64,000 bases of DNA from an uncultured Fibrobacteria bacterium (GTDB lineage: Bacteria > Fibrobacterota > Fibrobacteria > UBA11236). Of this stretch, positions 7,586-25,462 are shown piece after piece. The stretch is from contig OY970309.1 in the NCBI GenBank assembly GCA_963716395.1, forward strand, positions 2,048,001 to 2,112,000, read 5' to 3'. The translations under genes and the position numbers were made by a program. Under the pieces are notes generated by a model. The model was not told the DNA's origin and ran no database searches. It saw only the letters and a list, made by a program, of their open reading frames with translations. Position 1 is the stretch's first letter, and every line of letters starts with the position of its first letter.

Positions 7586-7672
7586 TGAAATGAATGCGAT
7601 CTCGCGTGAATGGGCGACTTGAACTTGGGAGCTAGAGTTATTGTTGGAAAAGGGGTTTCGATGTACCATTGC
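7586..7672 (+). mobile_element. G-rich oriIS-like element copy
   Basis: Starts GAAATGAATGCGATCTCGCGTGAA and ends GGAAAAGGGGTTTCGATGTACCATTGC; both parts match the 34372 and 36352 copies. Confidence 0.5.
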
Positions 7673-7738
7673 GGCCGGGTATTCCCGCACGGCGCCGTTT
7701 CGGCGTCGATAAGAATCCGGATTCCTAAAGGGGCCAAC

Positions 7739-10700
7739 ATGCGGGTAATGGGATCGATTTTTTCCTGCGCGGTGTTATTAAGTATTGCCGAAGCGACCCA
7801 ATACACGGTGACGCCGGGTGCGGTGACGGCCACCGCGTCCCCCTTGCGCACGGGTCGCGTAACGGGAACCGTGCTTCCCATCTGGAATTCCCCGGCCATC
7901 TATGCGGAAATGAAACGCGGTTTGCAGGAGCAGGGATTCCGGTTGTTCCGTTTCCCCAACGGAAGTACCTCCAACCAATACCACTGGAACGGAGCGGGTT
8001 CCTATGACTCGGTTGGCATTTGGCACCCTTCTTCCGATTCCGTGGCGCCGGGTTTCACTTCCAATACCCTATACCGGGGCACCACCAAAAGCAATTACGG
8101 ATCGGTTTTCTATTCGAACCTGACCGATGGCGTCGATTCCACCCTTTGGTGGAGCGATCCGCTGGCCGCCTCCGACGCGTGGGTGGCCTTGGACCTCGTC
8201 AACGCCACGACGGTGGATTCGGTGCAAATCGTGTGGGGGACTTTGCGCCCTGACAGCGTGGCCGTCGGAGCCGTGACGACTTCGGGATGGAATGCCTATG
8301 GTTCTCCCGACGCGGCGTTTTCGCAGCGCGCCCTCGCGGCGGTAACGGGAGCCGTCACCACTTTGCATTTGGACCCGGGGTCCATGCGGTTTTTGGCCCT
8401 ACGCCCACTCGGCATCGGGGCGGACGGAGTGCAAATCGGGGAAATCCGCGCCTGGTCGAATGGAGTTTTGGTCACCTCGAATGTGGCTGATCAGGCCAAG
8501 CAAACCCAAGCCTGGGCGATGTCGGCGCATCCCGGAAACCAGCGGACCAACGATTACAGCGGTACGGGAACGCCCAATTGGACTTTCGCCCTGTTCATGA
8601 ATTACCTCGACTCGCTTCCGGGATCCGAGGCCATGATTTGTGTGAACTATGGCACCGGCACGCCGGAAGAAGCCGCCGCCTGGGTCCGTTACGCCAATAT
8701 CGATCAACACATGGGCATACGCTTTTGGCAGGTCGGCAATGAAATGAACGGGGATTGGGAAGAGGGCGGGCCGGTGACGGCGAAGGAATACGCCCGCAAA
8801 TTCCTGGCGTATGCCAAGGCCATGAAGGCCGTCGACCCTTCGATTTGGGTGCTGGGCCCCACGCTGTCCACCTATGATTTTTCCGGAACAGGCAGCGCCG
8901 ACCTGGATGGAAACACTTGGACCGAGGAGTTCTTGCGCTTGGTGGGCGGGGCGGAAGTGGCCGATGGTATGCGCTATCTCGACGGTTTCGATTTTCACGC
9001 TTACCCCTATTACACTACGGCCGCTCCGACGCCGGATGCCATGCTCGCCGCCCTGCGCGGTCTCGGACCCAATCTCGACACCTTGGCCGCCATGTTGTCT
9101 CGTAACCTACAGGATCCGGGCTCGCGGTGGATCTCCCTTTCGGAATTCAACGCCTCGGTGATCAGTATGGATCTCACCATGCGTCCCGAAAACTCCACCG
9201 GCATGGCCATGATGCTGGCGCAACTGGTGCAAAAATTCGGCGGACAGGCGATGTCGATTGACTGGGAATCCTACGGCGCCACGAGCGGAAATCCCGACGG
9301 TAGCGCGGGTGGTACCTACGGAACGCTTTCCCTGTTCGTGCCGCCGCGCTCCGACGCGGGTTCGTCCATCGACCTCGCGCCCAATGCGCCTTACTGGGGC
9401 AATTGGATGGTTTCCAAAGTTTGGGCCATCGATTCGGCGCAACCCTTGGCCACTACCGTAACCGGCGGAACCTTGTTGGAGTCGCATGCCCTGACCAATG
9501 GCGCGGACACCGCGTATCTGTTCCTGAACATGTCGGCCGTTCCCTGCACGACGACGGTGACGCCTACGTTGGCGCGGGGTTGGATTTATTCGTTCTCCTC
9601 GCAGCAATACAGTTGGAACGGTTCTACTTCGGAAGCTTACGCCGCGCCCAATTCCGGACCTTCGTCGCGGCCGGTTCCGGCTGCGTGGGACGGAAAGTTG
9701 ATCGTCCCGGGTTTCGGAATGACGGTGTTGCGGACCAACGCCTCCCTTCCCGCTCCTTCCGCCGACCAGGTGGTGCAATTGGCGGTGAACAACAAGAACC
9801 TGGAATTCGGCGACACCTTGCTGATCTCGGGGACGGTGATACGCGCGCCCGGCGCTCCGGCGCCGAAGGCGCAACTCGGCGACTCGGTCTTGGAACTCGC
9901 CGCCAGCGACGGCGCTTGGGATGGTCCGCAGGAAGCCTTCGTCGCGAGGATTCCCGTGGACAATTTGGGAGCAGGCATGCGCTGGCTGCGATTGGGAAAT
10001 TCCGATTCGATCCAAATCAACATTACCGGCAAAGCGCGACCTACAGTATGGATCGATCAATTCGAGGACCAAAACCCGGCTTCCGACCAGCCCTCCAAGG
10101 CGCCTTGGACGGCGTATGCCGCCGGAGGCCTGCCCTCCACCCTGACGCTTTCCTTTCCCGTTCGGGCGGGAATGGGTCACGCCATGCAAGCCGCCGCCAG
10201 TATGACCCAGCCGGTCGATCTCGGTTACACCGTTTATGTCGAGGCGGGCCTGAACCTCGACAGCAACCTGGTGGATTCGTCCATTGGCATCCAATTCGAT
10301 TATGCGAGTTGGCATTCCAACGGAGGAACCTTCAATCTCCAAATCGCCACCGACACGGTGAAGAACTACGACGATTACCTCATCGCCTTGCCGGCCACGG
10401 ATTCCGTTTGGCGCACGATGAAACTGAAGTGGAGCGCATTCCAGCAACAAGGTTGGGGCGGCGTCCTAACCGGGCCGCTGCTGGCCCGCCAAGTCAACCG
10501 GCTGAACTTCCGCGCCATCGGCGAAGGCAACGCCACGTTTTGGATCGACAATATCGCCCTGCTTTCGTCTTCCGGGGATTCGATATCGGGAATCCAACCT
10601 GGAAAAACTACGCGCGCCGCGTGGTCCATAACGCCGCATGGATCCCAATGGGCATTCAATTTGCCCGCCGGCGCCACCGTGCGCCTCGTTGGACTCAATG

Positions 10701-10834
10701 GAAGTTTGCTGGGTCGTTTCGAAGCTCGCCGCGCGGGAGTGGTGCTGTATCAACCCCGGCATTCCGGAATCGTATACGCCGTGGTGGAAATCGAAGGAAA
10801 GCGGAACGTGAGATTGTTGCCAAACCTTCGTTAA
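7739..10834 (+). CDS. Secreted clan GH-A glycoside hydrolase (GH44/GH51-like) with discoidin-like insert, CBM11-like module and C-terminal sorting domain
   Basis: Signal peptide from ATG 7739; FRFPNGS..NQYHWN, VNYGTGTPEEAAAWVRY, WQVGNE, DFHAYPY and SLSEFN motifs; C-terminal WRTMKLKWSAFQQQGWG...FWIDNIAL. Confidence 0.8.
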   Translation: MRVMGSIFSCAVLLSIAEATQYTVTPGAVTATASPLRTGRVTGTVLPIWNSPAIYAEMKRGLQEQGFRLFRFPNGSTSNQYHWNGAGSYDSVGIWHPSSDSVAPGFTSNTLYRGTTKSNYGSVFYSNLTDGVDSTLWWSDPLAASDAWVALDLVNATTVDSVQIVWGTLRPDSVAVGAVTTSGWNAYGSPDAAFSQRALAAVTGAVTTLHLDPGSMRFLALRPLGIGADGVQIGEIRAWSNGVLVTSNVADQAKQTQAWAMSAHPGNQRTNDYSGTGTPNWTFALFMNYLDSLPGSEAMICVNYGTGTPEEAAAWVRYANIDQHMGIRFWQVGNEMNGDWEEGGPVTAKEYARKFLAYAKAMKAVDPSIWVLGPTLSTYDFSGTGSADLDGNTWTEEFLRLVGGAEVADGMRYLDGFDFHAYPYYTTAAPTPDAMLAALRGLGPNLDTLAAMLSRNLQDPGSRWISLSEFNASVISMDLTMRPENSTGMAMMLAQLVQKFGGQAMSIDWESYGATSGNPDGSAGGTYGTLSLFVPPRSDAGSSIDLAPNAPYWGNWMVSKVWAIDSAQPLATTVTGGTLLESHALTNGADTAYLFLNMSAVPCTTTVTPTLARGWIYSFSSQQYSWNGSTSEAYAAPNSGPSSRPVPAAWDGKLIVPGFGMTVLRTNASLPAPSADQVVQLAVNNKNLEFGDTLLISGTVIRAPGAPAPKAQLGDSVLELAASDGAWDGPQEAFVARIPVDNLGAGMRWLRLGNSDSIQINITGKARPTVWIDQFEDQNPASDQPSKAPWTAYAAGGLPSTLTLSFPVRAGMGHAMQAAASMTQPVDLGYTVYVEAGLNLDSNLVDSSIGIQFDYASWHSNGGTFNLQIATDTVKNYDDYLIALPATDSVWRTMKLKWSAFQQQGWGGVLTGPLLARQVNRLNFRAIGEGNATFWIDNIALLSSSGDSISGIQPGKTTRAAWSITPHGSQWAFNLPAGATVRLVGLNGSLLGRFEARRAGVVLYQPRHSGIVYAVVEIEGKRNVRLLPNLR

Positions 10835-11776: not shown

Positions 11777-12379
11777 ATGAGCCAATTGCAGGACACTGTC
11801 CTGTTTTTGAAAAGGCATGGTCCATGCCGGACACGGGAAATTGAAGCCGCGGGATATCGGCGCCAGGATCTGCAATACCTGATCAAATCAGGAAAGGTTG
11901 AGCGTTTGGGCCGTGGCATTTACCAAGTGGCCAAGGCTGACGTCCTGACCAATCCAAGTTTTGCAGAATTGTTTTTGCGATCGCCACAGGTGGTCCTCTG
12001 TCTGCTATCGGCGCTCCATTTTCATGAACTGACAACTCAGCTTCCGCACGAAGTTTGGGTGGCGGTGAGAATGAATTCTCGGGCTCCTAAGCTGAATTAT
12101 CCACCGCTTCGGGTTGCGCACTTTTCCGGACCTGCATTCACGAAAGGTGTTGAATTCCATAAGGCGGATGGTATTTCCATCAGGGTTTATAGTGTGGCTA
12201 AAACCGTGGCCGACCTTTTCAAAATGAGAAACAAGGTGGGATTGGATATAGCCATGGAAGCATTGCGCGAAGCGCTCAGGACGAGAAAGACCACCCGCGC
12301 GGAAATAATCAAGATGGCCAAGGTCTGCCGGATGGAAAGGATCATGCGTCCGTACCTGGAAATGGAGGCCGCGATTTGA
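11777..12379 (+). CDS. abiEi: Type IV toxin-antitoxin antitoxin, AbiEi family
   Basis: VERLGRGIY, VLCLLSALHFHELTTQLPHEVWVA and VYSVAKTVADLFKMRNKVGLDIAMEAL motifs. Confidence 0.92.
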   Translation: MSQLQDTVLFLKRHGPCRTREIEAAGYRRQDLQYLIKSGKVERLGRGIYQVAKADVLTNPSFAELFLRSPQVVLCLLSALHFHELTTQLPHEVWVAVRMNSRAPKLNYPPLRVAHFSGPAFTKGVEFHKADGISIRVYSVAKTVADLFKMRNKVGLDIAMEALREALRTRKTTRAEIIKMAKVCRMERIMRPYLEMEAAI

Positions 12380-13245
12380 GCGATATGGCGCCTTCCGTGG
12401 CGCAGCGACTCCTGAATTTCAGCAAAGGCAATAACGAAGGATATAACTTCATTCTTGTCCGCTACGGTGTGGAGCGCCTGCTCTATCGGATATCCCAGCC
12501 GCCCACTGGCCAGAAGTTTGTTTTGAAGGGGGCGAGCCTTTTCTTAGTGTGCTTTGGGCATGCTTTTCGAACTACACGCGATGTGGACTTGCTGGGCATG
12601 GGTTCCTGGGACTTGGAGACGATATCGAAAATCTTCCGCGCATTATGCATGATCGATACGCTGGGCGTAGACGGATTGCTCTTCCAATCGAAAACGGTTC
12701 TGGTGAGTCGAATCAAAGAGGATCAAGACTATGAAGGCGTGCGCGTGCTTTTGCGCGCCTTGCTGGGGAAAACACACATCGATTTACAAGTTGATGTCGG
12801 GTTCGGAGATGCAATTACACCCGAAGCGGAGCGTGTCCATTTCCCAACCTTACTAGATGGACCGGCCCCTTTCCTTTTGGCTTATCCTCCATACACCGCA
12901 ATCGCCGAAAAATTCCAGGCTATGGTTGGTCTCGACATGGCGAATTCGAGAATGAAAGATTTCTACGACATTTGCGTGCTATTCCGTTCCCTTACTTTGG
13001 ATCCTGAAATTCTGGCAACGGCTGCGCAACGAACCTTTGCGCGTCGTAACATGCCCCTGCCTGGAGAAATGCCCACGGCGCTTACGCGAAATTTTTCCGA
13101 GGATCCGATGAAACAGGCCCAGTGGAATGCTTTTGTCAAAAAGAATCGGCTGACCTTGCCCATGGGTGACTTGACGGAAGTGGTCGAAGAATTGCGCATG
13201 CGCTTTGAACCGATAATGCAAATTCTGGAGTCATGGCGGGGCTGA
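12376..13245 (+). CDS. abiEii: Type IV toxin-antitoxin nucleotidyltransferase toxin, AbiEii family
   Basis: ERLLYRIS, FVLKGA, RTTRDVDLL, QVDVGFGD, IAEKFQAM and NSRMKDFYD motifs; 4-bp overlap with abiEi. Confidence 0.92.
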   Translation: MSDMAPSVAQRLLNFSKGNNEGYNFILVRYGVERLLYRISQPPTGQKFVLKGASLFLVCFGHAFRTTRDVDLLGMGSWDLETISKIFRALCMIDTLGVDGLLFQSKTVLVSRIKEDQDYEGVRVLLRALLGKTHIDLQVDVGFGDAITPEAERVHFPTLLDGPAPFLLAYPPYTAIAEKFQAMVGLDMANSRMKDFYDICVLFRSLTLDPEILATAAQRTFARRNMPLPGEMPTALTRNFSEDPMKQAQWNAFVKKNRLTLPMGDLTEVVEELRMRFEPIMQILESWRG

Positions 13246-13670: not shown

Positions 13671-13881
13671 TGGGCGGCGAAAGTTAAAACACGGGCTTTG
13701 ATGAACCCCGCAAATTCTGAGCGTTGTAATTGTGTGAGATATGTATCTATAATTCGGATGCGTAAAAAAAGTCCTGGCGCTACTTTAAAACTAAAGCATG
13801 AACGGAGTCGTGAAAATGCTACGAAAATCAATCGTTAATGCTGCAAACGGTTTGTTTTTATCGAAATTAGCGGGGGGGGGG

Positions 13882-16800
13882 ATGAGGCGCTATCGTCATC
13901 GTCGCCGTTATTCTCTCGCCTAAACCATTCGCGCTTTCTAAAACCTTTCGCCTTCCTTCTGGGGCTAATTCTGTTGCCGGCAGCCGGAGTTCAGGCTCAG
14001 TCCTGCTTGGATGGGTATTCGCTTTATTCGGATGTTCAAACCGTTTTGGGCGACCGGGATAGCCTTGCCTCGGGCAATGCGGGCTCCAACGGATACCTGG
14101 AACTCGGCATAGATGGTAAAAGCCACGGGGACTTCGTAGCCAAAGGCAACATACTGCTTAAGGACAGGTCCACGGTATTCGCAAATGTAGCAGCGGGGGG
14201 GTCGGTAACCGTCGGCTCAGGAGCGGTCATCACCGGAACCCTGGTCCAAAACGCCTCCGTGCCTACGTGTGCACTTCCGCAAATAACCGTGACCCCGGGA
14301 GCAGGTGATATCAATGTTTACAACGGAACCACGGAGGAGTTGGCGCCGGGCGCCTATCGTAACGTCCAAGTGTATGGCAATGGCCGCCTGAAACTCAGTG
14401 ACGGCGTATATCGGTTCAATTCTTTGCAGACCTATGCCGATGGCCAATTCGAGTTCGACCCGGGATCCGGCAATATCGAAGTGCTGGTCGCCAACTCGCT
14501 TGCCATCGGTGACCGCACCCAATTCAATTTCACCGGCAACGCGCTGCCTGAACAGGTGAAGTTTCACAGCCAACAGACGAGCGACCTGACCATTGGTACC
14601 GATATTCAGTTCCAGGGCACTTTGGTGGCGCCTCTGGCCACGGTCAAGGCGTATTCACGCACGGTTTTTCACGGGGCGGTTTATGCCAAAACCATCAGTT
14701 TTGAACCGGACGTGAAGGTCTTTTACGAGCCGCTGACTCCCACCACCGTAATGATCTCCAGCCCCATGAGCGGCACGAGCACCAATGATTCCGTGATTCA
14801 GGTGACCTGGGCGGTTTCGGGGACGATGCAAGTGGTGCAAACCACCGATACCCTGACCCATTTCGGCATCAATACGATCAAGCGTTGCTTTGGATCGGTA
14901 TGCGACTCCATCGTCGTTTATTTGGATTCTGTCGAAATTCCCACGCCCAAGGTCGATTTTCGCTATTGCGCCGACCGGTATTTGATCTATTCCCAGCAGA
15001 CGTCCCAACTGGGAGAAGGCGTGCAAACCGTGGGGGGCGACGTGGGATCGGCCAACCAAGTGAACCTGGGGCAACAAGCCGAGATTTGGGGCTCGCTTGT
15101 TTCGAGTCACACCGCCAGCTTGGAGACAAACGCCGTGGTGAAAGGCATGGCGATAGTGGGCGATTCGATAACCCTGGATAGTGGTGCCCAGGTGGTGGAT
15201 AGTATCATCGAACATGCGGTCGGTTTGCAGGCCTGCCCCATTCCCACCTTGCCGAAGATTTCTTATGGGACCGGCAGCCTGGTCATTCCGCCCGGGCCTC
15301 AGCAAAACTTGGCTCCGGGAAAGTATGGAGATGTCCTGACCACTTCCGGGGCCACTTTGCATCTTAGTTCCGGCTCCTATAATTTTCAAAGCCTACGCCT
15401 GGACAGTTTGGCGGCACTAACCGTCGATCTTACCAATGGGCCCATTCAGATCAATGTGGAGGAGTATTTGAGCATTGGCCGGGAGGCCGAAATAGATGAA
15501 GTCGCCGGCGACACCAGTGAATTGATTACCATCTATACGAATCAAAGTGACACCGTGCGCATTCAATCTTTTGCCGGTGTGAGTGGAATCATCGTGGCGC
15601 CCTATGCACCCATTTTGGTGGGTGATAGCGTGGAAGTGGTGGGGCGTTTGTATCGGAAAAGACGTGATCCTTTCTGCGGGTGACATGGTCTACATGCAAC
15701 AGGTGCCCGACTCGTCGGCTTTTCCGCCTGCGCCCTCCATTCCGATAGTCACGGACACGATTCGGACATTTTGACTCCCTGTTTAGCCAGGTCACCCCGG
15801 GCCAGAAATCGCCGATCTGGCATCAAAGCGATCCTTACACCTATTCAAAAGCAGCCTATGGGGCCATTGGCGATGGCGAGCGACAATTTGCGCAAAAGAT
15901 GCATATGGGCTGGTATGAAATTTACGGTAATCAGGGCACGGATAGAACGGGAACCCGAACACCTTGATCACCTCCTTGCTTCCGGCCGTAGATCCTCCGC
16001 CCGGCGAGAATATCGTTCGAAAAGTGGCCACCATAGAGGCCAGAAACGATGCCTATGAATACGGCGCGAAACAATTCGGGGAAGATTTGGAGGACTTCGC
16101 CTGGGCCGATGCCGGCTGGTATGTGTGGCCGTTTAAAGGGTGCTGGGTGGATATCCCTTATCCTTGCATACGCAGATGGCGCTTTCGCATTTGCCATCAA
16201 AGGTTGCCCGGAATATGCGTACGGCCCAAGCCCAGCTTCCGCTTCCACCAGCCGCAAGCGGACGAAATGGTAGCGGCGGACAGAATGCAGATTCTGGATG
16301 CAATTCATCGCGACAAGTGCGCCGGCCGTTCCGGTAAGACAATCTGGGAAATCGGCAATGAACCCAATCTATTCCCCTATATCTTGCCGCAAGACTATGC
16401 CGATCTGGTGCGGGCTTATTACACGCTCATCAAGCAGGCCGACCCCCATGCCGCCGTGGCCTTCGGCTCGCTTTTCGACGTCGATTTCATGAAACAAGAT
16501 GCGAGGGACGCCCTGAACACCATGGCCACTACGGCTATTTTCACTGCAGGAGTCGCCGGAGCGGTGGTACTGAGTCCGCTTGTGGGTATCCTGACAGGAA
16601 TCGTTCTTAACGACGTGCGCGATGAGATGCGTGATAATATTTTCTTCCGCTACACTACGCGCGATTACTTTTCCCTGGTTTTGGCCAACCTCGACCCGAG
16701 CATCAAGCCTGAGGCCATTTCCGTGCATTACTACCCCTTTGACATTGAGGGCCGTTCTACGTCAGACGAGATAAAATCGCATATTGCCAATACCTCGGGC

Positions 16801-17222
16801 TGGCTTTCGTCTGATTTATACCGGAATCGCAGCCAATACGATCCGGTGGTCATTACCGAGACGGGAAATATCAACTGGAAACTCAATGACGAGACCGACG
16901 GTCCTGCCTAGAATGGTTGACATTCTCGATGGCGTGAAAAGGGGCATGTACCTCGGGGAAGCCAACGTGAATTACAATGCGCTGGTACTTTGGTACAAAC
17001 CGCTCACAGTCGACCCCAAATTCAATGGTTTGATCAAGCATTCCGTTTGTCGGCATCGACAACCCGCCGTTCACGAGGTTTATCAATGATGCGAAAACTG
17101 ATGTAAATGACGTTCAAGGATTTATCAATCTCAATGGATGGCCCTCTTTTTGTGGCGACATCAACAGTCTCGGCTTAGAATACTACCGAAGAATCAATGG
17201 AGTTGAATGTGGTGCGCCTTAA
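13882..17222 (+). CDS. Large secreted protein (~1100 aa): two beta-solenoid (DUF3494-like) domains plus a C-terminal clan GH-A catalytic-like domain; frameshifted in this sequence
   Basis: Stitched from 13974..15683, ~15655-15960, 15964..16911, ~16900-17040 and ~17040-17222. Signal peptide ...FLLGLILLPAAGVQA; duplicated LAPGxY...L.L..G.Y.F.SL; WEIGNEPN, ISVHYYP, VVITETG; ends GWPSFCGDINSLGLEYYRRINGVECGAP*. Confidence 0.65.
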
Positions 17223-17709
17223 TACTGCATTCGTGTTCGCGTTTTCCTTATGCCTCTTTGGATGCGGTTTGTTTTCCGATTCTTCCTACGAAGAAGACGT
17301 TTTAAACGATAGAAGTATTGTGGACGAAATTATCAAGGCCAATCCGGTATTGGATTCTGCTGTACAAGCCGGTCATTACTTTCTGCCCTACAGTAGCGAA
17401 TCCGGTCGAATTACTGGAAATTTGGATTTAAGCGATTTAGGGCTCAACGACAGCAATTTTTATTTTCCTAAAAGCATTAATGATTTTAAAATCGTCAATC
17501 AGGTTAATCTTATCGGTAACGACTTTACCGATTTGCCACAAGGTATACACCAAAAAAAATGGGATGTCGTATTGGTTTTGGGCAACAAAATGTGCAATCC
17601 TAGCCAAGAAACAATCGATTATTTGGATAGTTTGATGAAAGGTTTTCCCGGTGGTTACTGGCGCGACTCCCAGCACTGCAGCGATTCCATTCCGGCGCCC
17701 TCGCCATGA
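17197..17709 (+). CDS. LRR lipoprotein, cassette 1 (intact)
   Basis: Lipobox LFGC; LDLSDLGL / VNLIGNDFTDLP / VLVLGNKMC repeats; YWRDSQHC cap; start overlaps the upstream gene's 3' end. Confidence 0.8.
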   Translation: MELNVVRLNTAFVFAFSLCLFGCGLFSDSSYEEDVLNDRSIVDEIIKANPVLDSAVQAGHYFLPYSSESGRITGNLDLSDLGLNDSNFYFPKSINDFKIVNQVNLIGNDFTDLPQGIHQKKWDVVLVLGNKMCNPSQETIDYLDSLMKGFPGGYWRDSQHCSDSIPAPSP

Positions 17710-17869
17710 AATGAAAAAAAATTCAGGAGGTGATTTTCTGCCTGGGCATTTTATCACAACGAAACCATCCGGGCGGTTTATTGCCTCCGGCTTTCTCCTG
17801 TCTTGTTCGGGTATCCAAACTTTTGCGGTGACATGAACAGTCTCGGCTTGGAATACTACCGAAGAATCA

Positions 17870-18386
17870 ATGGAGGTGCTTGTGTTGCGCCTTAATATTT
17901 TGTTGGTTTGTTTGATAACATTGTTTATCTACGGATGCGGGTTTCTATTTGGAGATTCTTACGAGGAGGACAAAAATAATGACTGGAAAATCGTACGTGA
18001 AATAATTGCGGCCAATCCCGTGCTCAGTTCTGCAATTGATTCCGGCCACTACTTTTTGCCGACAGATGCAGAGTATGGCAGGATTACTGGAGAATTAAAT
18101 CTAGGTGGTTTGGGATTAAATGACAGCAATTTTTATTTTCCCGCAAGTATTCGTAATTTCAGAATAGTGAAATCCTGTTAATCTAGCCAACAATCAATTC
18201 ACAGACTTACCGAGAGGTACCCGAAATAAGAATTGGAATTGCCGTCTTAGTTATGGGCAAACAAAATATGCAACCCTAGCCAGGCAACGATCGATTATTT
18301 GGATAGTATTGATGAAAGGATCACCAGGAGGTTACTGGCGCGACTCCCAGCACTGCAACGATTCCATTCCGGCGCCCTCGCCATGA
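17870..18386 (+). CDS. LRR lipoprotein, cassette 2 (frameshifted)
   Basis: Lipobox IYGC; paralog of cassette 1; indels after 18170; ends ...PAPSP*. Confidence 0.7.
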
Positions 18387-18543
18387 AATGAAAAAATCAG
18401 GAGGTGATTTTCTGCCTGGGCATTTTATCACAACGAAACCATCCGGGCGGTTTATTGCCTCCGGCTTTCCCTTGTCTTGTTCGGGTATCCAAACTTTTGC
18501 GGTGACATGAACAGTCTCGGCTTGGAATACTACCGAAGAATCA

Positions 18544-19058
18544 ATGGAGGTGCTTGTGTTGCGCCTTAAATAATTTGTTGGTTTGTTTGATAACATTGTT
18601 TATCTACGGATGCGGGTTTCTATTTGGAGATTCTTACGAGGAGGATAAAAATAATGACTGGAAAATCGTGCGTGAAATAATCACGGCCAATCCCGTGCTC
18701 GGATTCTGCAATTGATTCCGGCCATTACTTTTTGCCGACAGATGCAGAATATGGCCGGATTACTGGAGAATTGGATTTGAGTGGATTGGGACTTAGTGAT
18801 AGTGATTTTTATTTCCCTAAAAGCATTCAAAATTTCAGAATCGTCAAATCTGTTAATTTATCTCGTAATAATTTCACAGAGTTGCCATTAGGTACCAGGC
18901 TTAAAAGCTGGTTGTCGGTTTTGGTATTAGGGAATAAAATGTGCAACCCCAGTACAGAAACGGTGGCGTACTTGGATACCTTAATGAAGGGATTTGGTGG
19001 GCCCTATTGGCGAGACTCCCAGCGCTGTAATGATTCTATACCGGCGGCAGTCCCATGA
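18544..19058 (+). CDS. LRR lipoprotein, cassette 3 (frameshifted near 5' end)
   Basis: 5' part near-identical to cassette 2; ORF 18732..19058 LDLSGLGL..VNLSRNNFTELP..LGNKMC..YWRDSQRC. Confidence 0.7.
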
Positions 19059-19219
19059 TTGAGGCCAAAAGTTAGGCGGTGGTTCTGTGCTAGGGAAATC
19101 AGGTTCTCTGACAAAGTCTTGTCGGCATTTTTCCCCCTTGATGGCCCTAGCGTTCTACGGATGGTCCTCATTTTGCGGTGACATGAACAGTCTCGGCTTG
19201 GAATACTACCGAAGAATCA

Positions 19220-19736
19220 ATGGAGTTGATTGCGGTGCGCCTTAATATTTTGTTGGTTTGTTTGATAACATTGTTTATCTACGGATGCGGGTTTCTATTT
19301 GGAGATTCTTACGAGGAGGACAAAAATAATGACTGGAAAATCGTGCGTGAAATAATTACGGCCAATCCCGTGCTCAGATCTGCCAATTGATTCCGGCCAT
19401 TACTTTTTGCCGACGGATGCCGAGTATGGCCGGATTACTGGAGATTGGATTTAGATGGTTTGGGATTAAATGACACCAATTTTCATTTTCCCGCGAGTAT
19501 TCGTAATTTCAAGATCGTTAAATTCCTTAGTTTATGCCGCTAACGAATTCTACAGACTACCGTAAGGCACAAGAGACAAAAAATGGGAGAGTCGTGGTGC
19601 CTTGGTTCAACAATATTTGCAACCCAAGTCTGAAACGGTGACGTATTTGGATAAAATGATGGAGGGATTTCCGGGTGGTCCCTATTGGCGCGATACCCAG
19701 CACTGTAGTGATTCCACTCCGGCGCCCTCGCCATGA
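19220..19736 (+). CDS. LRR lipoprotein, cassette 4 (multiple indels)
   Basis: Same signal peptide and N-terminus as cassettes 2-3; ends YWRDTQHCSDSTPAPSP*. Confidence 0.6.
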
Positions 19737-20064
19737 AATGAAAAAATCAGGGGGGTGATTTTCTGCCTGGGCATTTTATCACAACGAAACTATCCGGGCG
19801 GTTTTTTGCCTCCGGCTTTCTCCTGTCTTGTTCGGGTATCCAAACTTTTGCGGTGACATGAACAGTCTCGGCTTGGAATACTACCGAAGAATTAATGGAG
19901 TTGAATGTGGTGGATCTGAATCGGGGTGAACCTTATCTTCGATACCCACCGGAATCTTTGAAGTCGGAACAGAAGGCGTTGAGGCGGGATGATTTGGACG
20001 GCAGTAAGAAATGGGTGCTTCAAAAACCGGCTGAAACAGGAATCAAAAAATCCGGGAGGTTGAT

Positions 20065-21201
20065 ATGTACAAGACTGTTACGGTGATACTTTGGTTGTTG
20101 GCGGCAATCGTGCATGGGCAATCGGTGTGGACTATGGAGAATCCATTGCCGACCCTAAAACAACCGATCTCCCTCACCTATGGAGACTCCCAATTCGTGA
20201 TGGTGGGTGAGGATAGCGTCGTGCTTACCTCTCCGGATGGATTAAACTGGACGCTTGGGAATTCGGGTACATTTTTTGCTCTGAACTCGGTGGTATGGGG
20301 TGGTTCCCAATTCGTTGCCGTGGGGATAGGAGGATACATTTTCACCTCGCCGGACGCCATTAGTTGGACATTCAGGACATCAGGGACACTTCTCTTGCTG
20401 AATGCCGTCGCCTTTGGTGGCAATCGTTTCGTGGCCGTTTCGCAAAGCGGCGCCATCCTCAGCTCGCCGGACGGCGTCACCTGGACGCCTGGCAATTCGG
20501 GAATATCGACCGCCTTGTATTCCATTACTTACGGCGATTCCCAATTCGTGGCCGCGGGGCAAGGCGGCGCCATCCTCACCTCGCCGGACGGCGCCACCTG
20601 GACATCCAGGAGCTCAGGTACTGCATCTATTCTTTATTGCATCACCTATGGCGGCTCCCAGTTCCTGGCCGCGGGGCAAGGCGGCACCATCCTCACTTCA
20701 CCGGACGGCATCAACTGGACGCCTAAGAATTCGGGCACGACGGTCGACTTGAACGCAGCCACCTATGGCGGCGCCCAGTTCGTAGCCGTCGGCAATGGCG
20801 GCACCATTCTCACCTCGCCCGACGGCGTCAACTGGAAGACCGTGATACTCGAAACGGGGGGGGGGTTGTCTGCAGTCGCATTCGGCAATTCGAAGTATGT
20901 GGTTTTCGACGGTTTAAATTTGCTGTTTTCGACCCCAGACGGCGCTGGCGCCATTGTCGGCTCGGTGGCCCGCGGCATTTCGCTGCGCCTGACTTCTTCC
21001 GATCTCTTCGCTTCGTATCCAAGGTTTTCCGGCCAGTCCGTGCACGCAGGCATATTTACCGCCAGTGGAAACAAGGTGATGGAGGCTTGGGGCCGAGGCG
21101 ACGGAATCTCTCTGTCCATCGGCGGCTTGGCCAATGGCGTTTATTCACTGGATGTCGTGTGCGGTAAGGAGCGGGCCAGTAGCAGGTTTGTGAAGCGTTA
21201 G
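20065..21201 (+). CDS. Secreted beta-propeller repeat protein with C-terminal sorting domain
   Basis: Signal peptide; six ~39-aa repeats (F V A x G x G G x I L T S P D G x x W T); GGAGG SD. Confidence 0.85.
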   Translation: MYKTVTVILWLLAAIVHGQSVWTMENPLPTLKQPISLTYGDSQFVMVGEDSVVLTSPDGLNWTLGNSGTFFALNSVVWGGSQFVAVGIGGYIFTSPDAISWTFRTSGTLLLLNAVAFGGNRFVAVSQSGAILSSPDGVTWTPGNSGISTALYSITYGDSQFVAAGQGGAILTSPDGATWTSRSSGTASILYCITYGGSQFLAAGQGGTILTSPDGINWTPKNSGTTVDLNAATYGGAQFVAVGNGGTILTSPDGVNWKTVILETGGGLSAVAFGNSKYVVFDGLNLLFSTPDGAGAIVGSVARGISLRLTSSDLFASYPRFSGQSVHAGIFTASGNKVMEAWGRGDGISLSIGGLANGVYSLDVVCGKERASSRFVKR

Positions 21202-21474: not shown

Positions 21475-21538
21475 ACCGCTGGTTATGGCAGTAAAACCGA
21501 TTTTGTCCCAAAAATGGCGCTTTATTGCGATTAACATT

Positions 21539-21560
21539 GGTATATACTATGGTATATGCC
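21539..21560. promoter_or_regulatory. vapBC operator palindrome overlapping a putative promoter
   Basis: GGTATATAC-TATG-GTATATGCC; TTGCGA(21525)-17 bp-TATGGT. Confidence 0.6.
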
Positions 21561-21571
21561 ACGGAGGGAAA

Positions 21572-21808
21572 ATGACCATTGCAAAACTGTTTATGAACGG
21601 AAGAAGCCAGGCCATCCGGTTGCCCAAGGAATTCCGGTTTGAAAACGAGGAAGAAATCATGATTAAGCGCATGGGCGAAATAGTGTTGCTCATTCCCAAA
21701 AACAAATGGGAGGACATTCTCGTCCAGGCGTTGGAATCCTTTCCCCGCGACGTCGCCTTCGAGCGCCTCGACAACGACCCCGGCCGTGAGCGCGACATTG
21801 CGATATGA
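21572..21808 (+). CDS. vapB: VapB (AbrB/MazE-fold) antitoxin
   Basis: MTIAKLFMNGRSQAIRLPKEFRF; GGAGG SD. Confidence 0.93.
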   Translation: MTIAKLFMNGRSQAIRLPKEFRFENEEEIMIKRMGEIVLLIPKNKWEDILVQALESFPRDVAFERLDNDPGRERDIAI

Positions 21809-22206
21809 AATATCTCCTCGACACCGACATTTGCATTTACGTGCTCAAGCACCGATACCTGCGCTTGGTGGAAAAGCTGCGGCGGGTGGGCATTGAAAAT
21901 GTCGGCGTGACGACCATCACATTGGCCGAATTGGAATACGGTGTTGCCAACAGCCAAAAGCCGGCGGAAACCACGGCCCGGCTTTATGAATTCCTCGCGC
22001 CCTTCTCATTTCTTGATTTCGACGCGGATTCGGCGCGCCACTATGGCGGAATACGCAAGACACTGAAGGATCAAGGGCGGCCGATTGGCCCCATGGATAT
22101 TTTAATCGCCTCCGTGGCATTGGCCCATGACCGGGTGCTGGTCACCAACAATATCGGGGAATTCACGCGGGTGCCGGGCTTGAAAATCGAAAATTGGGCG
22201 GCTTGA
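21805..22206 (+). CDS. vapC: VapC PIN-domain toxin
   Basis: YLLDTDICIY, AELEYG, IGPMDILIA and LVTNNIGEFTRVPGLKIENW motifs; ATGA overlap. Confidence 0.95.
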   Translation: MKYLLDTDICIYVLKHRYLRLVEKLRRVGIENVGVTTITLAELEYGVANSQKPAETTARLYEFLAPFSFLDFDADSARHYGGIRKTLKDQGRPIGPMDILIASVALAHDRVLVTNNIGEFTRVPGLKIENWAA

Positions 22207-22405: not shown

Positions 22406-23099
22406 TCAATTCCCTTTCCAATGCACGTGATAAAGGTCATGCCGCCTGTCCTTCAGGTTGCGCACCGTGCCGTTGAAGCGGGCCGTGATCAAGGTTTCGG
22501 GCCGGATATCGGCGATGGCCACCGTTTCCACGTTCGGCGTGGTATCGGCCGCGATACCGTCGCGGGCGAAGGGAAAGTCGCACGGCGTCAGGATGCAGCT
22601 TTGGGCATATTGAATGTCCATGTTCGCCACATTGGGAAGATTGCCGACATTCCCCGACATCACCACATAGATTTGGTTTTCCACCGCCCGGGCCTGGCAG
22701 CAATAACGCACCCGCAAATAGCTTTGTCGCTCGTCGGTGCAAAAGGGCACGAAGAGAATGAGGATGCCTTCATCCGTCAGATGCCGCACCAATTCCGGGA
22801 ACTCGGAGTCGTAGCAAACCAACACCCCGATGGGTCCGCAATCGGTTTGAATGGCGTTCAGGAAATTGCCGCCTTCGACATTCCACCAAAAAGCCTCGCT
22901 TATCGGCGATGGCGATGACGAATTGCCCGGCGGGGAAATGGTTGATTTGGCCGATGACGGCTCCGATTTCATAGCCTTTCATTCCGCTATCCGCGTAAGC
23001 CTTGGTGGTCAAATCACAAATAGCCTGGGCATCGGCCATCACTGCGTTGCGGACAATGATCTTGTCTTTGGAATTCGCGAAGCGGAAAGAGGAAGTCAT
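22406..23099 (-). pseudogene. GNAT/carbon-nitrogen hydrolase fusion with a large internal deletion
   Basis: GNAT start (IVRNA..D...GQINHFPAGQFV) joined out of frame at ~22900 to the nitrilase C-half (GVLVCYDSEFPE, FVPFCTDERQSYLRVRYCCQARAVENQ). Confidence 0.75.
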
Positions 23100-23273: not shown

Positions 23274-25225
23274 TCAGGGCAAAGGAGAAGTCATCCGATG
23301 GCCGTGAAGGTCCATCCACTCTAGGTTTCCGTTGTCGTCGAAGCGCGGAAATTCGAGGGCGCCCCGCTTGAGAAAGAAGCGCGCCAAGGGTTGCGCGCGT
23401 GGTCGACGCTCTCCCGCGATGACGGCCCCCGCCACGCCGAAGGCGTTCTGAATCACGAAGGGTCGGGTCTCGCGACTGGCCAGGGTAACCTGGAAAGAAC
23501 GTGGCCCGCTTCCCGCGACGGGGATTTGGGACAACACGGTATCGGCGAGAGCGTCCAGCAGCGAAAATGTTCCTGGAGGCAATCCGGATACCGACACGGT
23601 AGATGTGGTCTTTACCGAGTCGGTATTGGTCACCACCACCACCAGGGAGCTGTCTTGATCCACGAAGCCCCAGGCCTTCGCCCGGCCGGAGGCGCGGAGG
23701 GGTGAAACCTTGGCGGCGGAATCGGCGTCAGGATGGGGGCGTAACTTCAGGAGTTTGCCGCGTTCCGCGCTGGTCAGAAGGGCCGTGGGGGGGACAATCC
23801 AACAGGTGGGGATGGCGTTGGATTTTAAGCTGTCCAAAGCGGCGTCGGTCACGAAGTACCCGAAAGGAGCATGCATCCAGGCGGTGTCAACCGCCGCGGG
23901 AAGGTTCAAGATGCCGCCCTGGTTTTCGACGGCGCGGAGCATGGTGTCGGAGTAAAAGAAGCCGGGGCCGTATACCCGTTTCGGAATGTGCGCCCAGAGG
24001 CGGCGTGACTCCGGGTCGGGCGCTGTCGACCTCGTCGTTGTAACCGTACTGGAACGCTTGGGCGGCGCGCCGGACATTGCCGTTGCGGCCGGCGACATGG
24101 GCGAAGCCGACCAGGAACCATTCCGTGTTGTATTCCGAGGCGGTGTCGCGCAGCGGAATGTTCGCCAAGGTCAGCCCGGAGGTGAAGTAATCGTCCACGA
24201 TGTTCAGCTTCGCGCCCAAGGGCATGGAGGGTTCCCAGGCGCAGTAGGTGCCGAAGATTCCGATGAGGGATCCCGGACTGTAAATGGGGCGCAGGTTGTC
24301 GCATTGCATCTCGATCCCGAAATACCAATCGCTGGGGATTGGGCAGCAGCTTGAAGTAGCGCCGGAAATCGACGCCCATCCATCGTCGCTGCGGGACGTT
24401 CCAAGCGCATTGGGCCTGGATCGAGCGGCTCCTGTCCGGTGTAGAGCTTGATCCGGAGGGCCGTCTTGGGAGTAGAAGTGGGCCCAGGAATCGTCCCAGA
24501 AGTCGGCCCATCGGGAGGCGAGGTTCTGGTTGATGTAGGCGGCCTGTGCGGCGACGGTAGCTTCCCGGAACGGTGATTCCGGTGGAGTCTTCGAAAGCCC
24601 GGATGACGCGGGGACTGAAGTCGATCTGGTTCGCCATATATCCCGGCATTCCATCCACGTAGTCGGCGGCGGCGAGACCCACCATGTGGGTGGCCTGGCA
24701 CAACCGCGCTACGCGCTCGGCGGCCCAGTCGCCCCAGACGCAGGTTGGCATCCCCTCGGGGCAGTCGGCGGCGGGCATGGGTTGGGCCGGCGAGATCCAG
24801 CCATAGTCGGAACTCGATCCCAGCGGGGCGACGTACTGTCCGGAGGCGTTCACCGGGGTCAGGCTGTCGTGGGCGTATTCCCAATAGGTGTAGGCGATCC
24901 AGGCGGGATCGGTGTTCAAAATGGCGACGCTGGCAGGCAACGTGGTGTCGCCCCAGCGGTTGGAGCCCGCCCAGGAAACCGCGCTCATCACGGGGGCTAC
25001 GCCTTGGGAGGCCAACTTATCGGCGCTCGCCCGCATGTCGGAAAACTGGGAACTGTCGGCTTTGTCCCAGAAGAGTTGCTTACCCCACTGGGCGTTACCC
25101 ATGCCCCAGGGAATGTCGTAAATCTGGCTTTCGTTCGGAGGCTGGTCGGGGTTTGGAGCCGCAGCTTGGAGGGAGGCGGACAATGCCGTTATGGGAATTA
25201 TGCATCGCAGCAGGCGTTTGATCAC
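23274..25225 (-). CDS. Secreted protein of unknown function, possibly glycoside-hydrolase-like; frameshifted
   Basis: GGAG SD, GTG start and signal peptide (IKRLLRCIIPITALSASLQA); Trp/Asp-rich body continuing through frame changes near 24560 and 24000; C-terminal MDLHG motif. Confidence 0.6.
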
Positions 25226-25309
25226 GATGGCTCCATGGTGCGGGGATGAACGCCCCTGAATCCGCATTTTACCAAAAGCGGTGAAGGAGGGTACAGAATT
25301 ACCGCTGCC

Positions 25310-25403
25310 GGCCCTCTCGGCCGGTGCGCTTGGTTCCCGAGCGTGTCGAGGGTTGTCGAACCGGTCGAACCGGACGAAGGGCATTAGTTTGCGGCGGATT
25401 GAG
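25310..25403. repeat. REP-like module, copy 3 (nested)
   Basis: CTCGGCCGGTGCGCTTGGTTCCCGAGCGTGTCGAGGGTTGTCGAACCGGTCGAA...GCGGCGGATTGA; closest to copy 1. Confidence 0.75.
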
Positions 25404-25462
25404 ATAATTCTGCGCGCTTTCGCCGACCCGGAACATTTTCCCTGCGGTAGATTATCCCCAAG

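Follow-up and report, generated by a model that had tools for sequence, protein, structure and literature searches.

The window analysed here, a 64,000-nucleotide stretch of a contig from an uncultured Fibrobacteria bacterium, contains a 3.4 kb gene for a large secreted protein (13816..17222, +) that would comprise ~1130 codons if read through, as judged from a map of its frames and from its indels relative to the orthologue in another Fibrobacterota genome, G256. Its ATG at 13816 lines up with the start of the intact orthologue P0001, and the predicted product begins with a signal peptide, carries two beta-helix repeats and has a clan GH-A domain at its C-terminus, ending in GWPSFCGDINSLGLEYYRRINGVECGAP ahead of the stop codon at 17220-17222. 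The N-terminal module with the two beta-helix repeats (13974..15680, +) is recognised by an internal repeat, by matches to Pfam DUF7305 (1.1e-14) and pAdhesive_15 (7.3e-8), and by 57-61% identity to the N-terminus of an Rhs toxin of the same genome (G000:C1:847363). This Rhs paralogue is a teneurin-like protein with a Tlde1 toxin domain, and four ORFs with Rhs core or C-terminal pieces lie 3' of it. The module itself is not toxin-specific, since 105/296 genomes have it and it also occurs in fusions with RCC1, cadherin-like, Ig and CBM domains.

The large gene is followed by an array of lipoprotein cassettes and then by the gene for a 378-aa secreted repeat protein (20065..21201, +), which is beta-propeller-like, with 39-aa repeats (117-nt repeats in the DNA) and a match to Pfam DUF6242. 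The propeller-like gene is syntenic with the hydrolase-lipoprotein pair in G256, in a second Fibrobacterota genome (G260) and in the metagenome contig L074; it is the third conserved gene of the locus, and a toxin/immunity model leaves it unexplained. A GH44-like gene lies upstream of the pair. The locus as a whole is a low-GC island flanked by AbiE and VapBC modules: GC is 0.42-0.47 in the array, which had been described at the outset as more AT-rich than the core genes, 0.53-0.55 in the large gene and about 0.6 in the surrounding genome.

The C-terminal domain of the large protein (15721..17222, +) was delimited by alignments and by structural modelling. Neither it nor its counterparts in the intact orthologues match any glycoside-hydrolase family of Pfam or NCBIfam, and no CAZy family was assigned; the evidence for placing it in clan GH-A comes from the predicted fold and the conserved putative catalytic residues. 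For the intact orthologue from G256, AF2 gave a (beta/alpha)8 barrel (pLDDT 86.5, pTM 0.88), for which Foldseek returned a probability of 1.0 to structures of PslG, GH5, GH53 and GH39 (7e-7 to PslG 5bx9), and VIA-align superimposed 282 residues on the GH39 structure 2bfg_A (Z 21.2, rmsd 3.4 A); between them the two programs matched the model to GH39, GH5, GH53 and GH51. In clan GH-A enzymes the acid/base glutamate belongs to an Asn-Glu-Pro motif that follows strand 4, and the nucleophile glutamate comes after strand 7. In the model, E214 of the WEIGNEPN motif comes after the strand at 207-211 and E388 of ITETG closes the strand at 384-389; across 28 aligned sequences E388 never varies, and at least 90% keep N213, E214 and P215. 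In the model the two residues occupy the positions of the clan's catalytic glutamates, and glycosidase activity is predicted; the clan GH-A fold that the preliminary description had read from these two motifs is in agreement with the model. Further features of the domain are two inserts, one Cys-rich and basic and the other a 55-residue hydrophobic helical hairpin, and a C-terminal extension that forms the predicted lipoprotein site. It is one family and not polymorphic (44-77% identity; 44-100% across the six close homologues), and the Rhs/CDI demarcation motifs PxxxxDPxGL and VENN were found in 0/6 of these.

The small protein encoded next to it is a three-unit LRR protein. Pfam alone gave no match to it at E<0.1, and its assignment to the LRR proteins, which are marked by tandem LxxLxLxxN-type repeats, comes from a profile of 12 lipoproteins, which matched LRR structures from Leptospira (7e-20) and SHOC-2 (1e-12), and from the best 10 Atlas clusters, all of which have LRR Pfam families. 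A hydrophobic N-terminus and Cys23 are kept in 12/12 aligned rows. The residues ahead of this cysteine read F/Y/Q/C-G-C, and once F-E-C, so that position -2 is unlike the classical lipobox. The original identification of the small genes as LRR lipoproteins is thereby borne out for the repeats, the signal peptide and the conserved cysteine, the putative lipobox being atypical at -2.

Copy 1 of the lipoprotein gene (17197..17709, +; 170 aa) is an intact ORF with LRR profile matches, and its ATG at 17197 lies inside the end of the large gene, giving the 26-nt overlap noted originally. The last 28 codons and stop of the hydrolase gene (tip 1, 17136..17222, +) are seen four further times at a spacing of 673-677 bp. 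A direct-repeat finder reported four-copy families over 17148-19920 (spacing 672-678 bp), and tblastn with two intact orthologues (P0001 and P0003) re-found their final 27-45 residues at 17803/17809-17892, 18432/18477-18566, 19159-19242 and 19828/19834-19914; the spacing had first been put at ~673-676 bp. Tip 2 (17809..17895, +), identified by tblastn, ends in GYPNFCGDMNSLGLEYYRRINGGACVAP and a stop, and is followed by copy 2 (17870..18386, +), which has 103 open codons and then ~4 single-base insertions. Tip 3 (18483..18569, +), recovered by both methods, is 98% identical to tip 2, including the spacer of tip 2, and precedes copy 3 (18545..19058, +), in which there are two single-base insertions (at codon 9 and near 18700) and the final 121 codons are open. 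Tip 4 (19159..19245, +), ending in GWSSFCGDMNSLGLEYYRRINGVDCGAP and a stop, has a spacer before it that differs from the other three (62%), and leads into copy 4 (19220..19736, +), which has gained a single base at three sites, lost one at two and contains one TAA in frame. Tip 5 (19834..19917, +) is followed by only the first six lipoprotein codons and then by unrelated sequence, at a right-hand junction that is also found in G256. Four tips with diverged lipoprotein paralogs are present as first described, of which only copy 1 is open and copies 2-4 are frame-broken.

The history of the array is not one of simple local duplication, because copy 1 is nearer to the lipoproteins of other genomes than to its neighbours and because the independent metagenome contig L073 holds two cassettes of different lineages with one tip between them. 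Copy 1 clusters in the tree with other genomes' lipoproteins (98/97) and copies 2-4 cluster with P0108 (91/97); copy 1 is not the recent source of the array by amplification. G256 retains a decayed tip behind its single lipoprotein.

Both families are rare. Among 5.8 billion proteins, we found six members of the hydrolase family and 10 of the lipoprotein family, with intact orthologues of the large gene in G256 and G260 and on L073 and L074. Full-length lipoproteins occur in 3/296 Fibrobacterota species genomes; the lipoprotein was found without the hydrolase in 0/293 genomes, and in none of 11 further genomes from the genus of this bacterium. At all five loci of close homologues with readable downstream DNA (the window, G256, G260, L073 and L074) the lipoprotein lies directly 3' of the hydrolase; a sixth link is suggested only by contigs of matching length, and the start/stop overlap of the two genes is conserved among the orthologous loci. 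The number of cassettes varies as had been anticipated, with one each in G256, G260 and L074, at least two in L073 and four in the window. The further suggestion that an LRR lipoprotein always follows the hydrolase domain holds for the close homologues and fails for the distant relatives, in which the domain is 26-31% identical or a weaker match and the lipoprotein is lacking at 41/43 loci.

Binding between the two partners, also proposed in the preliminary description, is supported by structure prediction. The modelled complex gave an ipSAE of 0.81 (0.81, 0.74 and 0.81 in separate runs), with 0.00 for the best of three controls; at least 87% of contacts were common to the runs and partner pLDDT was at least 85. 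The ipSAE mark is reached by 58/80 solved complexes and by 2/110 mismatched pairs, counts that are only approximate here because our own alignments were used. In the predicted interface the concave face of the LRR protein meets hydrolase residues 463-488, together with 50-51, 68-77, 84, 107 and 441; Glu214 and Glu388 do not appear among the interface residues listed, which is a statement about the list and not about coordinates. On the hydrolase side the interface falls in one of the two stretches of greatest variability, and mean pairwise identity is lower in the interface than in the rest of both the hydrolase (0.40 vs 0.63) and the lipoprotein (0.39 vs 0.59). Random residue sets were equally variable in no more than 1/10000 cases, although these sets ignore surface exposure and surface residues vary more anyway.

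We propose, with moderate confidence, that the locus encodes a toxin/immunity-like pair accompanied by orphan immunity cassettes, in which toxicity, inhibition and delivery are putative. A secreted effector, in which a beta-helix stalk carries a clan GH-A glycosidase at the C-terminus, would be paired with a cognate LRR lipoprotein inhibitor, and the two are probably made together because their genes overlap by 26 nt. The envelope-tethered lipoprotein would grip the hydrolase with its concave LRR face at a hypervariable C-terminal helix on the barrel rim, and this binding would shield the producing cell, or a neighbouring recipient of the enzyme. The downstream cassettes would then make up a reserve of "orphan" lipoprotein alleles that differ in specificity, each of which retains the conserved final ~55-85 nt of the hydrolase gene; this tip would carry the lipoprotein start and possibly a promoter, and could supply homology for the gain, loss and exchange of cassettes. 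Linkage, rarity, predicted binding, interface variability, the history of the array, the Rhs-like N-terminus, the island context and the precedent of a proposed class of LRR immunity proteins speak for this effector-inhibitor reading, from which we infer the inhibition, the toxicity, a target glycan and a route of delivery. No delivery machine for the hydrolase is evident. Counting against this reading are the membership of all the hydrolase domains in a single conserved family, where exchanged toxin domains would differ, the lack of the lipoprotein in most distant relatives and of any genome that has the lipoprotein alone, the absence of Glu214 and Glu388 from the listed interface, the wide use of the N-terminal module, and the broken frame of the effector gene in this assembly.

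A different partnership, doubtful in our estimation and yet the most substantial of the alternatives, would be that of an ordinary extracellular or envelope polysaccharide-processing hydrolase with an LRR lipoprotein that tethers or chaperones it, docking it to the outer membrane through its C-terminal helix in a cohesin-dockerin-like manner, the extra cassettes being decaying tandem duplicates. The distant relatives do look like ordinary secreted carbohydrate enzymes, to judge from weak matches to PF11790 in 16/34 of those scanned and from their additional fn3, Ig, Big_9, Calx-beta, type IX sorting (Por_Secre_tail) and dockerin domains. Polysaccharide hydrolases, PslG among them, are also the top structural matches, the predicted interface involves the C-terminal helix and not the catalytic residues, the operon conserves a secreted propeller gene and has the GH44-like gene upstream, and of the four lipoprotein copies in the window only one is unbroken. 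A docking surface would, however, not be expected to rank with the most variable regions of the two proteins, and tandem duplication is at odds with the affinities of copy 1 and with the two lineages in L073. Moreover, only one protein of the genome bears the putative docking end, and the distant relatives keep the C-terminal element of the hydrolase in spite of having no lipoprotein.

The broken frames raise the improbable alternative that a horizontally acquired operon is decaying, and that the array has no present function in this genome. The large gene has at least six breaks and is spread over at least six frame segments, differing from the intact 1139-aa G256 orthologue by five single-base indels and by 17 nt inserted next to a G10 run, and there are ~11 breaks in copies 2-4 (~4, 2 and ~5, respectively) in addition to the TAA of copy 4. 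Decay would be consistent with the low GC of the island and with the open frames elsewhere in the same genome of rpoB, rpoC, the 2515-aa Rhs gene and an upstream 1074-aa gene. Bacterial pseudogenes, however, have a deletion bias, and the single-base changes in the large gene and copies 2-4 comprise 13 insertions to 3 deletions, several of them outside homopolymers. Unrelated neighbouring genes (22406-23099 and 23274-25570) are likewise broken, a rough scan of the whole genome found 189 frame-switch candidates, which fits uneven consensus quality, and every frame segment of the large gene keeps 61-81% amino-acid identity to its orthologues. Because the indels are mostly single-base insertions, we suspect that the frame breaks are consensus errors of the assembly. 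Cassette variation of a surface lipoprotein, with copy 1 expressed, copies 2-4 as silent gene-conversion donors, the conserved tip as homology and phage or predator pressure as the driver, would account for the mosaic similarity between cassettes (97-98% in some segments, 62-69% in others) and the conserved 5' element ahead of every cassette, and such systems tolerate broken downstream copies, but it is very improbable given that the variable residues lie on the face predicted to contact the hydrolase, whose contact helix varies too, that the orthologous loci mostly have a single cassette, that the breaks may be assembly errors and that surface exposure of the lipoprotein is putative.

The effector-inhibitor pair that we favour can be compared with several known systems. 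With the GH39, GH5, GH53, GH51 and GH128 enzymes (PslG and the GH39 xylosidases, for example) the hydrolase shares the predicted (beta/alpha)8 fold, the acid/base Glu of NEP and the nucleophile Glu of TE; it differs in its Cys-rich basic insert, its 55-residue hairpin and its C-terminal extension with the lipoprotein site. The polygalacturonase-inhibiting proteins of plants bind and inhibit a glycoside hydrolase through the concave LRR face, and the contact surface varies in an arms race; these are cell-wall proteins directed against fungal GH28 beta-helix enzymes, and beyond the common LRR fold there is no homology. A peptidoglycan glycosidase with an adjacent periplasmic or lipoprotein inhibitor is found in Tse3-Tsi3 of the T6SS and in X-Tfe/X-Tfi of the Xanthomonas T4SS. 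Such effectors have a lysozyme-like fold and reach their targets by T6SS or T4SS injection, whereas the pair described here is distinguished by a predicted clan GH-A TIM barrel with a Sec signal and no known injector, and by an LRR partner. As in the polymorphic toxin loci (Rhs, CDI) surveyed in PMC3482391, the gene for a large secreted protein whose C-terminal domain is an enzyme is directly followed by that of a small, here predicted, binding partner, and diverged downstream copies each stand behind a remnant of the toxin 3' end. The N-terminal module is in addition shared with a genuine Rhs toxin encoded in this genome. Unlike those loci, which carry interchangeable C-terminal toxins on a conserved N-terminal body, the six close homologues have the same GH domain, and the remnant is ~28 codons of the domain end and not a core-plus-toxin piece. 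The same paper proposes LRR immunity proteins as a class (Imm-LRR), placed beside T5SS toxins and in poly-immunity loci, and terms lipoprotein immunity, as in Imm65, exceptional (PMC3482391). Imm-LRR is matched here by an LRR protein as the putative immunity protein, with several copies in the locus, and the LRR protein of the present pair differs in being a predicted lipoprotein and in its neighbour, Imm-LRR being reported beside T5SS toxins. The arrangement of a cognate partner downstream, at 5/5 loci, with orphan modules in the form of tips or cassettes in the window, L073 and G256, is the one known from polymorphic toxin loci.

The secreted beta-helix and glycoside hydrolase (GH) gene at 13816-17222 (plus strand) ends in ...GWPSFCGDINSLGLEYYRRINGVECGAP*, and the next gene, an open frame for a 170-aa leucine-rich repeat (LRR) protein (copy 1, 17197-17709), starts at an ATG (17197) inside it, for an overlap of 26 nt. 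A repeat finder detected direct repeat families of four copies each, 672-678 bp apart, between 17148 and 19920, and tblastn searches with intact orthologues as queries located four further occurrences of the last 27-45 residues of the hydrolase. We refer to the last 28 codons of the gene and their recurrences as "tips"; tips 1-4 each precede a copy of the small LRR gene, and tip 5 is followed by six of its codons and then by unrelated DNA. The GC content of the array is 0.42-0.47, as compared to ~0.6 in its surroundings. The repeats, the tblastn matches, the overlap and the lower GC content together confirm the arrangement reported in the preliminary description, namely an effector-like gene followed by an array of tip-plus-lipoprotein cassettes. 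The tip is the final conserved element of the GH domain and is kept in distant relatives as well. Promoter-like matches at tips 2-5 (consensus matches under sigma-70 rules that may not fit this phylum) numbered 4 of 16, against 8.4 +/- 2.5 in shuffles.

The small gene lies directly 3' of the hydrolase gene, and the end of the one overlaps the beginning of the other, at all five loci with readable downstream DNA: the window, two other Fibrobacterota genomes (G256 and G260) and two metagenome contigs (L073 and L074). Contigs of matching size alone suggest a sixth such link. There are four cassettes in the window, one each in G256, G260 and L074, and at least two in L073, where the contig ends, which bears out, for close homologues of the hydrolase with readable downstream DNA, the expected presence of an adjoining lipoprotein gene in variable copy number. 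The adjacency does not extend to the wider relatives: among 43 loci encoding GH-domain relatives in species-representative genomes, searched with a 6-row alignment as query, only two have the lipoprotein gene within 6 kb, and both belong to the close subfamily. A lipoprotein profile matched 13 of 296 Fibrobacterota species genomes at E<=1e-6; full-length members occur in three of the 13 (the source genome G000, G256 and G260), and the other ten have LRR-only matches, nearly all within longer frames. This profile search yielded no species genome with the lipoprotein and without the hydrolase, and the 11 other members of the genus to which the window belongs all lack the lipoprotein. In G256 a decayed tip lies behind the lone lipoprotein gene and the right-hand junction is the same as that of tip 5 in the window, which argues that the tip-flanked cassette structure predates the split of these genomes.

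The pair is embedded in a region that extends from about 11 to 23 kb of the window and has a GC content of ~0.42-0.57, below that of the rest of the window, and is flanked by an AbiEi/AbiEii module (11777-13245) on one side and a MazE-like/PIN (VapBC-type) module (21485-22206) on the other; no tRNA was found at the edges of this island (5000-30000). Upstream, in DNA of normal GC content, lies an intact gene (7610-10834) for a 1074-aa secreted protein with a GH44-like domain, a weak CIA30-type match and sub-threshold F5/8-type-C matches. A secreted propeller-like repeat protein is encoded downstream of the pair in the window, G256, G260 and L074. The window copy (20065-21201) is made of 117-nt (39-aa) repeats, and the last ~90 residues of its product presumably resemble a type IX sorting domain, for which there was no Pfam match. 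On the 3' side of the propeller gene in L027, the G256 locus, a 104-nt piece (5699-5802) that is 86% identical to the WEIGNEPN region at 16321-16424 of the window looks like a relic of another hydrolase copy; the contig ends soon after.

The small LRR protein belongs to a family with ten members among 5.8 billion proteins, all of which begin with a hydrophobic segment and share an invariant Cys. The residues ahead of this Cys depart from the textbook lipobox, and we regard the protein, from its sequence, as a probable lipoprotein. Against solved structures, the family profile matches LRR proteins (7e-20), and LRR proteins also make up each of the ten top-scoring language-model clusters. The mature protein consists of a short helical cap and three LRR units.

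The C-terminal ~510 residues of the large protein gave no Pfam or NCBIfam match, either in the pieces encoded by the window or in the intact orthologues. Six proteins of this kind were found among 5.8 billion; the profile of the six, run against 1.84 billion representatives, retrieved 98 proteins at E<=1e-3 and 41 at E<=1e-10. Among 34 of the 98 that were scanned with Pfam, 16 have a weak match to PF11790 ("glycosyl hydrolase catalytic core") and many carry fn3, Big_9, Calx-beta, type IX sorting or dockerin domains. An AlphaFold2 model from 28 aligned sequences reached a pLDDT of 86.5 and a pTM of 0.88; one built from 6 sequences (pLDDT 49) was discarded. Foldseek matched the model to PslG (7e-7) and next to GH5, GH53, GH39 and GH128 enzymes, and VIA-align superimposed it on a GH39 xylosidase (Z 21.2, rmsd 3.4 A over 282 residues). 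In the numbering of the G256 orthologue, Glu214 of WEIGNEPN comes after a strand and Glu388 of ITETG closes one; E388 is invariant and N-E-P is kept in at least 90% of the 28 sequences. Since the barrel matches agree and both glutamates are conserved and placed at strands, the clan GH-A fold suspected from these two motifs is supported. The domain carries two inserts: a subfamily-specific, four-Cys, Arg-rich beta-meander (residues 138-167, window about 16130-16230) and, between strands 5 and 6, a helical hairpin (residues 259-316, window about 16500-16660), whose very hydrophobic, Gly/Ala-rich version is specific to the subfamily. Variability within the domain peaks in the hairpin loop, and residues 466-480 rank second among its 15-residue windows.

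The N-terminal 570 residues of the large protein form two beta-helix repeats (Pfam DUF7305, 1e-14; pAdhesive_15, 7e-8). Their sole close paralogue in the source genome, at 57-61% identity, is the N-terminus of a 2515-aa teneurin-like Rhs protein with a YD shell, a DPLGL motif and a C-terminal Tlde1 domain. This protein is encoded outside the window in a classical Rhs locus (G000:C1:847159-862000), where its gene and that of a 190-aa secreted protein are followed by four ORFs that contain parts of an Rhs core or C-terminus and are interspersed with, and succeeded by, small ORFs. The kinship is a suggestive, not a decisive, link to toxins. The module is found in 105 of 296 genomes (a tally that takes in one unpublished genome, G254) and is also joined to RCC1, cadherin-like, Ig, TSP3 and CBM4_9 domains in the 15 proteins scanned, i.e., 14 from other genomes plus the Rhs protein of the source genome. 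Two of these 15 are of Rhs type, and we rejected the notion that the module is specific to toxins. From 20 module regions, six (L106, L108, L113, L117, L120 and L123) had been left out as their longest frame mismatched the expected gene or exceeded 5000 aa. We also rejected the possibility that a conserved Cys after the signal peptide makes the large protein itself a lipoprotein: the same Y-C-x-D-x-Y-x-I-Y-S element starts the second beta-helix repeat and, in G260, lies 9 residues past the signal peptide, which counts against a lipobox.

The binding anticipated between the GH domain and its cognate LRR protein is supported by structure prediction, although not shown by it. For the G256 GH domain and its own mature lipoprotein the predicted complex has an ipSAE of 0.81 (0.81, 0.74 and 0.81 in separate runs), against 0.00 for the best of three controls; the ipSAE mark is reached by 58 of 80 solved complexes and 2 of 110 mismatched pairs, a calibration that is rough here because our own alignments were used. 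At least 87% of contacts are common to the runs, with a partner pLDDT of at least 85. On the LRR protein, the predicted contacts fall on strand positions of the concave face in all three units; on the hydrolase they comprise residues 463-488 plus 50-51, 68-77, 84, 107 and 441, and the catalytic glutamates are not among them. Residue 107 is next to R108 and D110, two almost invariant positions of the loop past the first barrel strand, and residue 441 comes after the W-Y-K motif of strand 8, from which we infer that the modelled site lies at the rim of the catalytic face. Mean pairwise identity is lower in interface than in other columns on both sides (hydrolase 0.40 vs 0.63, lipoprotein 0.39 vs 0.59); at most 1 in 10000 random residue sets was equally variable, bearing in mind that surface residues vary more anyway. 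An apparent co-divergence of the partners (Pearson r 0.95, 10 pairs) was set aside, as it is dominated by a single outgroup and rests on pairs that lack independence.

A maximum-likelihood tree was built for 15 lipoproteins, with copies 2-4 translated across their frame breaks and X placed there. In this tree, copy 1 clusters with P0103, P0104 and P0105, homologues from other assemblies (98/97), and copies 2-4 cluster with another homologue, P0108 (91/97). In L073 the hydrolase-adjacent lipoprotein represents a third lineage and the second cassette the copy-1 lineage. The separate grouping and the different lineage order in L073 indicate an array of old, distinct alleles whose positions shift between genomes, and exclude a fresh amplification. 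Between the two cassettes of L073 (3664-3873) a lipoprotein 3' end is joined in-frame with a tip (...YWRDSQRC|GWSSFCNDINSLGLEYYRRINGEECDAP*), and this fusion is a recombination scar. The preliminary description had allowed for a mis-assembly of strain variants; the distinct lineages, a unique spacer (62%) and the two cassettes with a tip between them in the independent contig L073 make such an artefact unlikely.

Reading-frame breaks affect much of the locus. The large gene is one long gene with at least six changes of frame; relative to the intact 1139-aa orthologue in L027, it has single-base indels at 15653, 15763, 15945, 16895 and 17036, four in-frame indels and a 17-nt insertion beside a G10 run (13872-13881) that is absent from G256. 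One more G in this run would bring the start codon at 13816 into the main frame; the run would be a miscalled homopolymer or else a tract subject to phase variation. Copy 1 is open. When compared to five intact homologues, copies 2, 3 and 4 contain four, two and three single-base insertions, respectively, and copy 4 has in addition two single-base deletions, a 3-nt insertion and an in-frame TAA. The assembly, a single contig of 3.75 Mb at 99% completeness, is not uniformly noisy, because rpoB (1291 aa), rpoC (1388 aa), the 2515-aa Rhs gene and the upstream 1074-aa gene are all open. Two unrelated minus-strand genes just downstream are also frame-split: a carbon-nitrogen hydrolase gene (22406-23099), which matches positions 130-255 only of its profile, and a ~770-codon gene in three frames without a family match (23274-25570). 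A genome-wide scan with our own codon-model Viterbi procedure listed 189 same-strand frame-switch candidates, a rough lower bound that cannot be compared with the count at the locus, the scan having missed the breaks of the large gene, where its path was non-coding. Real bacterial pseudogenes show a deletion bias. The large gene and the lipoprotein copies together show the reverse (13 single-base insertions vs 3 deletions), and amino-acid identity to orthologues stays at 61-81% through every frame segment; on both grounds we consider local consensus error to be likelier than decay, by a factor of roughly two.

We give about even chances to the reading of the locus as a toxin/immunity-like pair with orphan cassettes. 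It best fits, jointly, a gene pairing that is both strict and exclusive, the overlap in translation, a confidently predicted complex whose interface varies on both sides, arrays in which old alleles stand beside remnants of the toxin end, the AbiE/VapBC island and the kinship of the N-terminus with an Rhs protein. Against it count the lack of Rhs or CDI motifs in the hydrolase, a domain that is not polymorphic, the resemblance of the wider GH family to ordinary carbohydrate enzymes, the lack of a lipoprotein-only genome, and the conserved propeller gene and export route, for which it does not account. A less likely alternative is an enzyme plus its anchor, which would represent a new docking pair for the surface display of Fibrobacterota carbohydrate enzymes and be of narrower interest. 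That the locus is simply dead, as its many breaks might suggest and the insertion excess does not, appears improbable, and so does cassette variation of a surface lipoprotein.

The toxin/immunity reading can be extended, more tentatively and with some doubt, to an undescribed, Sec-exported form of antagonism in Fibrobacterota. The hydrophobic helical hairpin of the clan GH-A glycosidase would dip into the membrane, and the target of the enzyme might be a periplasmic or lipid-linked glycan of competitors. The LRR lipoproteins, in an allele-specific manner, would neutralise it by gripping its hypervariable C-terminal helix. Recombination at the conserved end of the toxin gene, its 3' tip, might enlarge and reshuffle the immunity repertoire, and this tip might also hold the start signals of each cassette.

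LRR immunity proteins have been proposed already (PMC3482391). No paper on DUF7305 was found in the literature, and titles and abstract openings revealed no pairing of a clan GH-A toxin with an LRR lipoprotein; supplements could hold family lists, e.g., Imm-LRR. If the two proteins are indeed toxin and immunity protein, a TIM-barrel glycosidase would join the known antibacterial enzyme folds and an LRR lipoprotein the known immunity folds, in a phylum in which antagonism between bacteria has hardly been studied. The tip, being so short a repeat, points to a minimal means of stockpiling immunity genes, and the predicted interface, with one variable helix in an LRR groove, would be a compact model for the evolution of toxin-immunity specificity. 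The helix-in-groove interface predicted here would have a parallel in the plant LRR inhibitors of microbial glycosidases.
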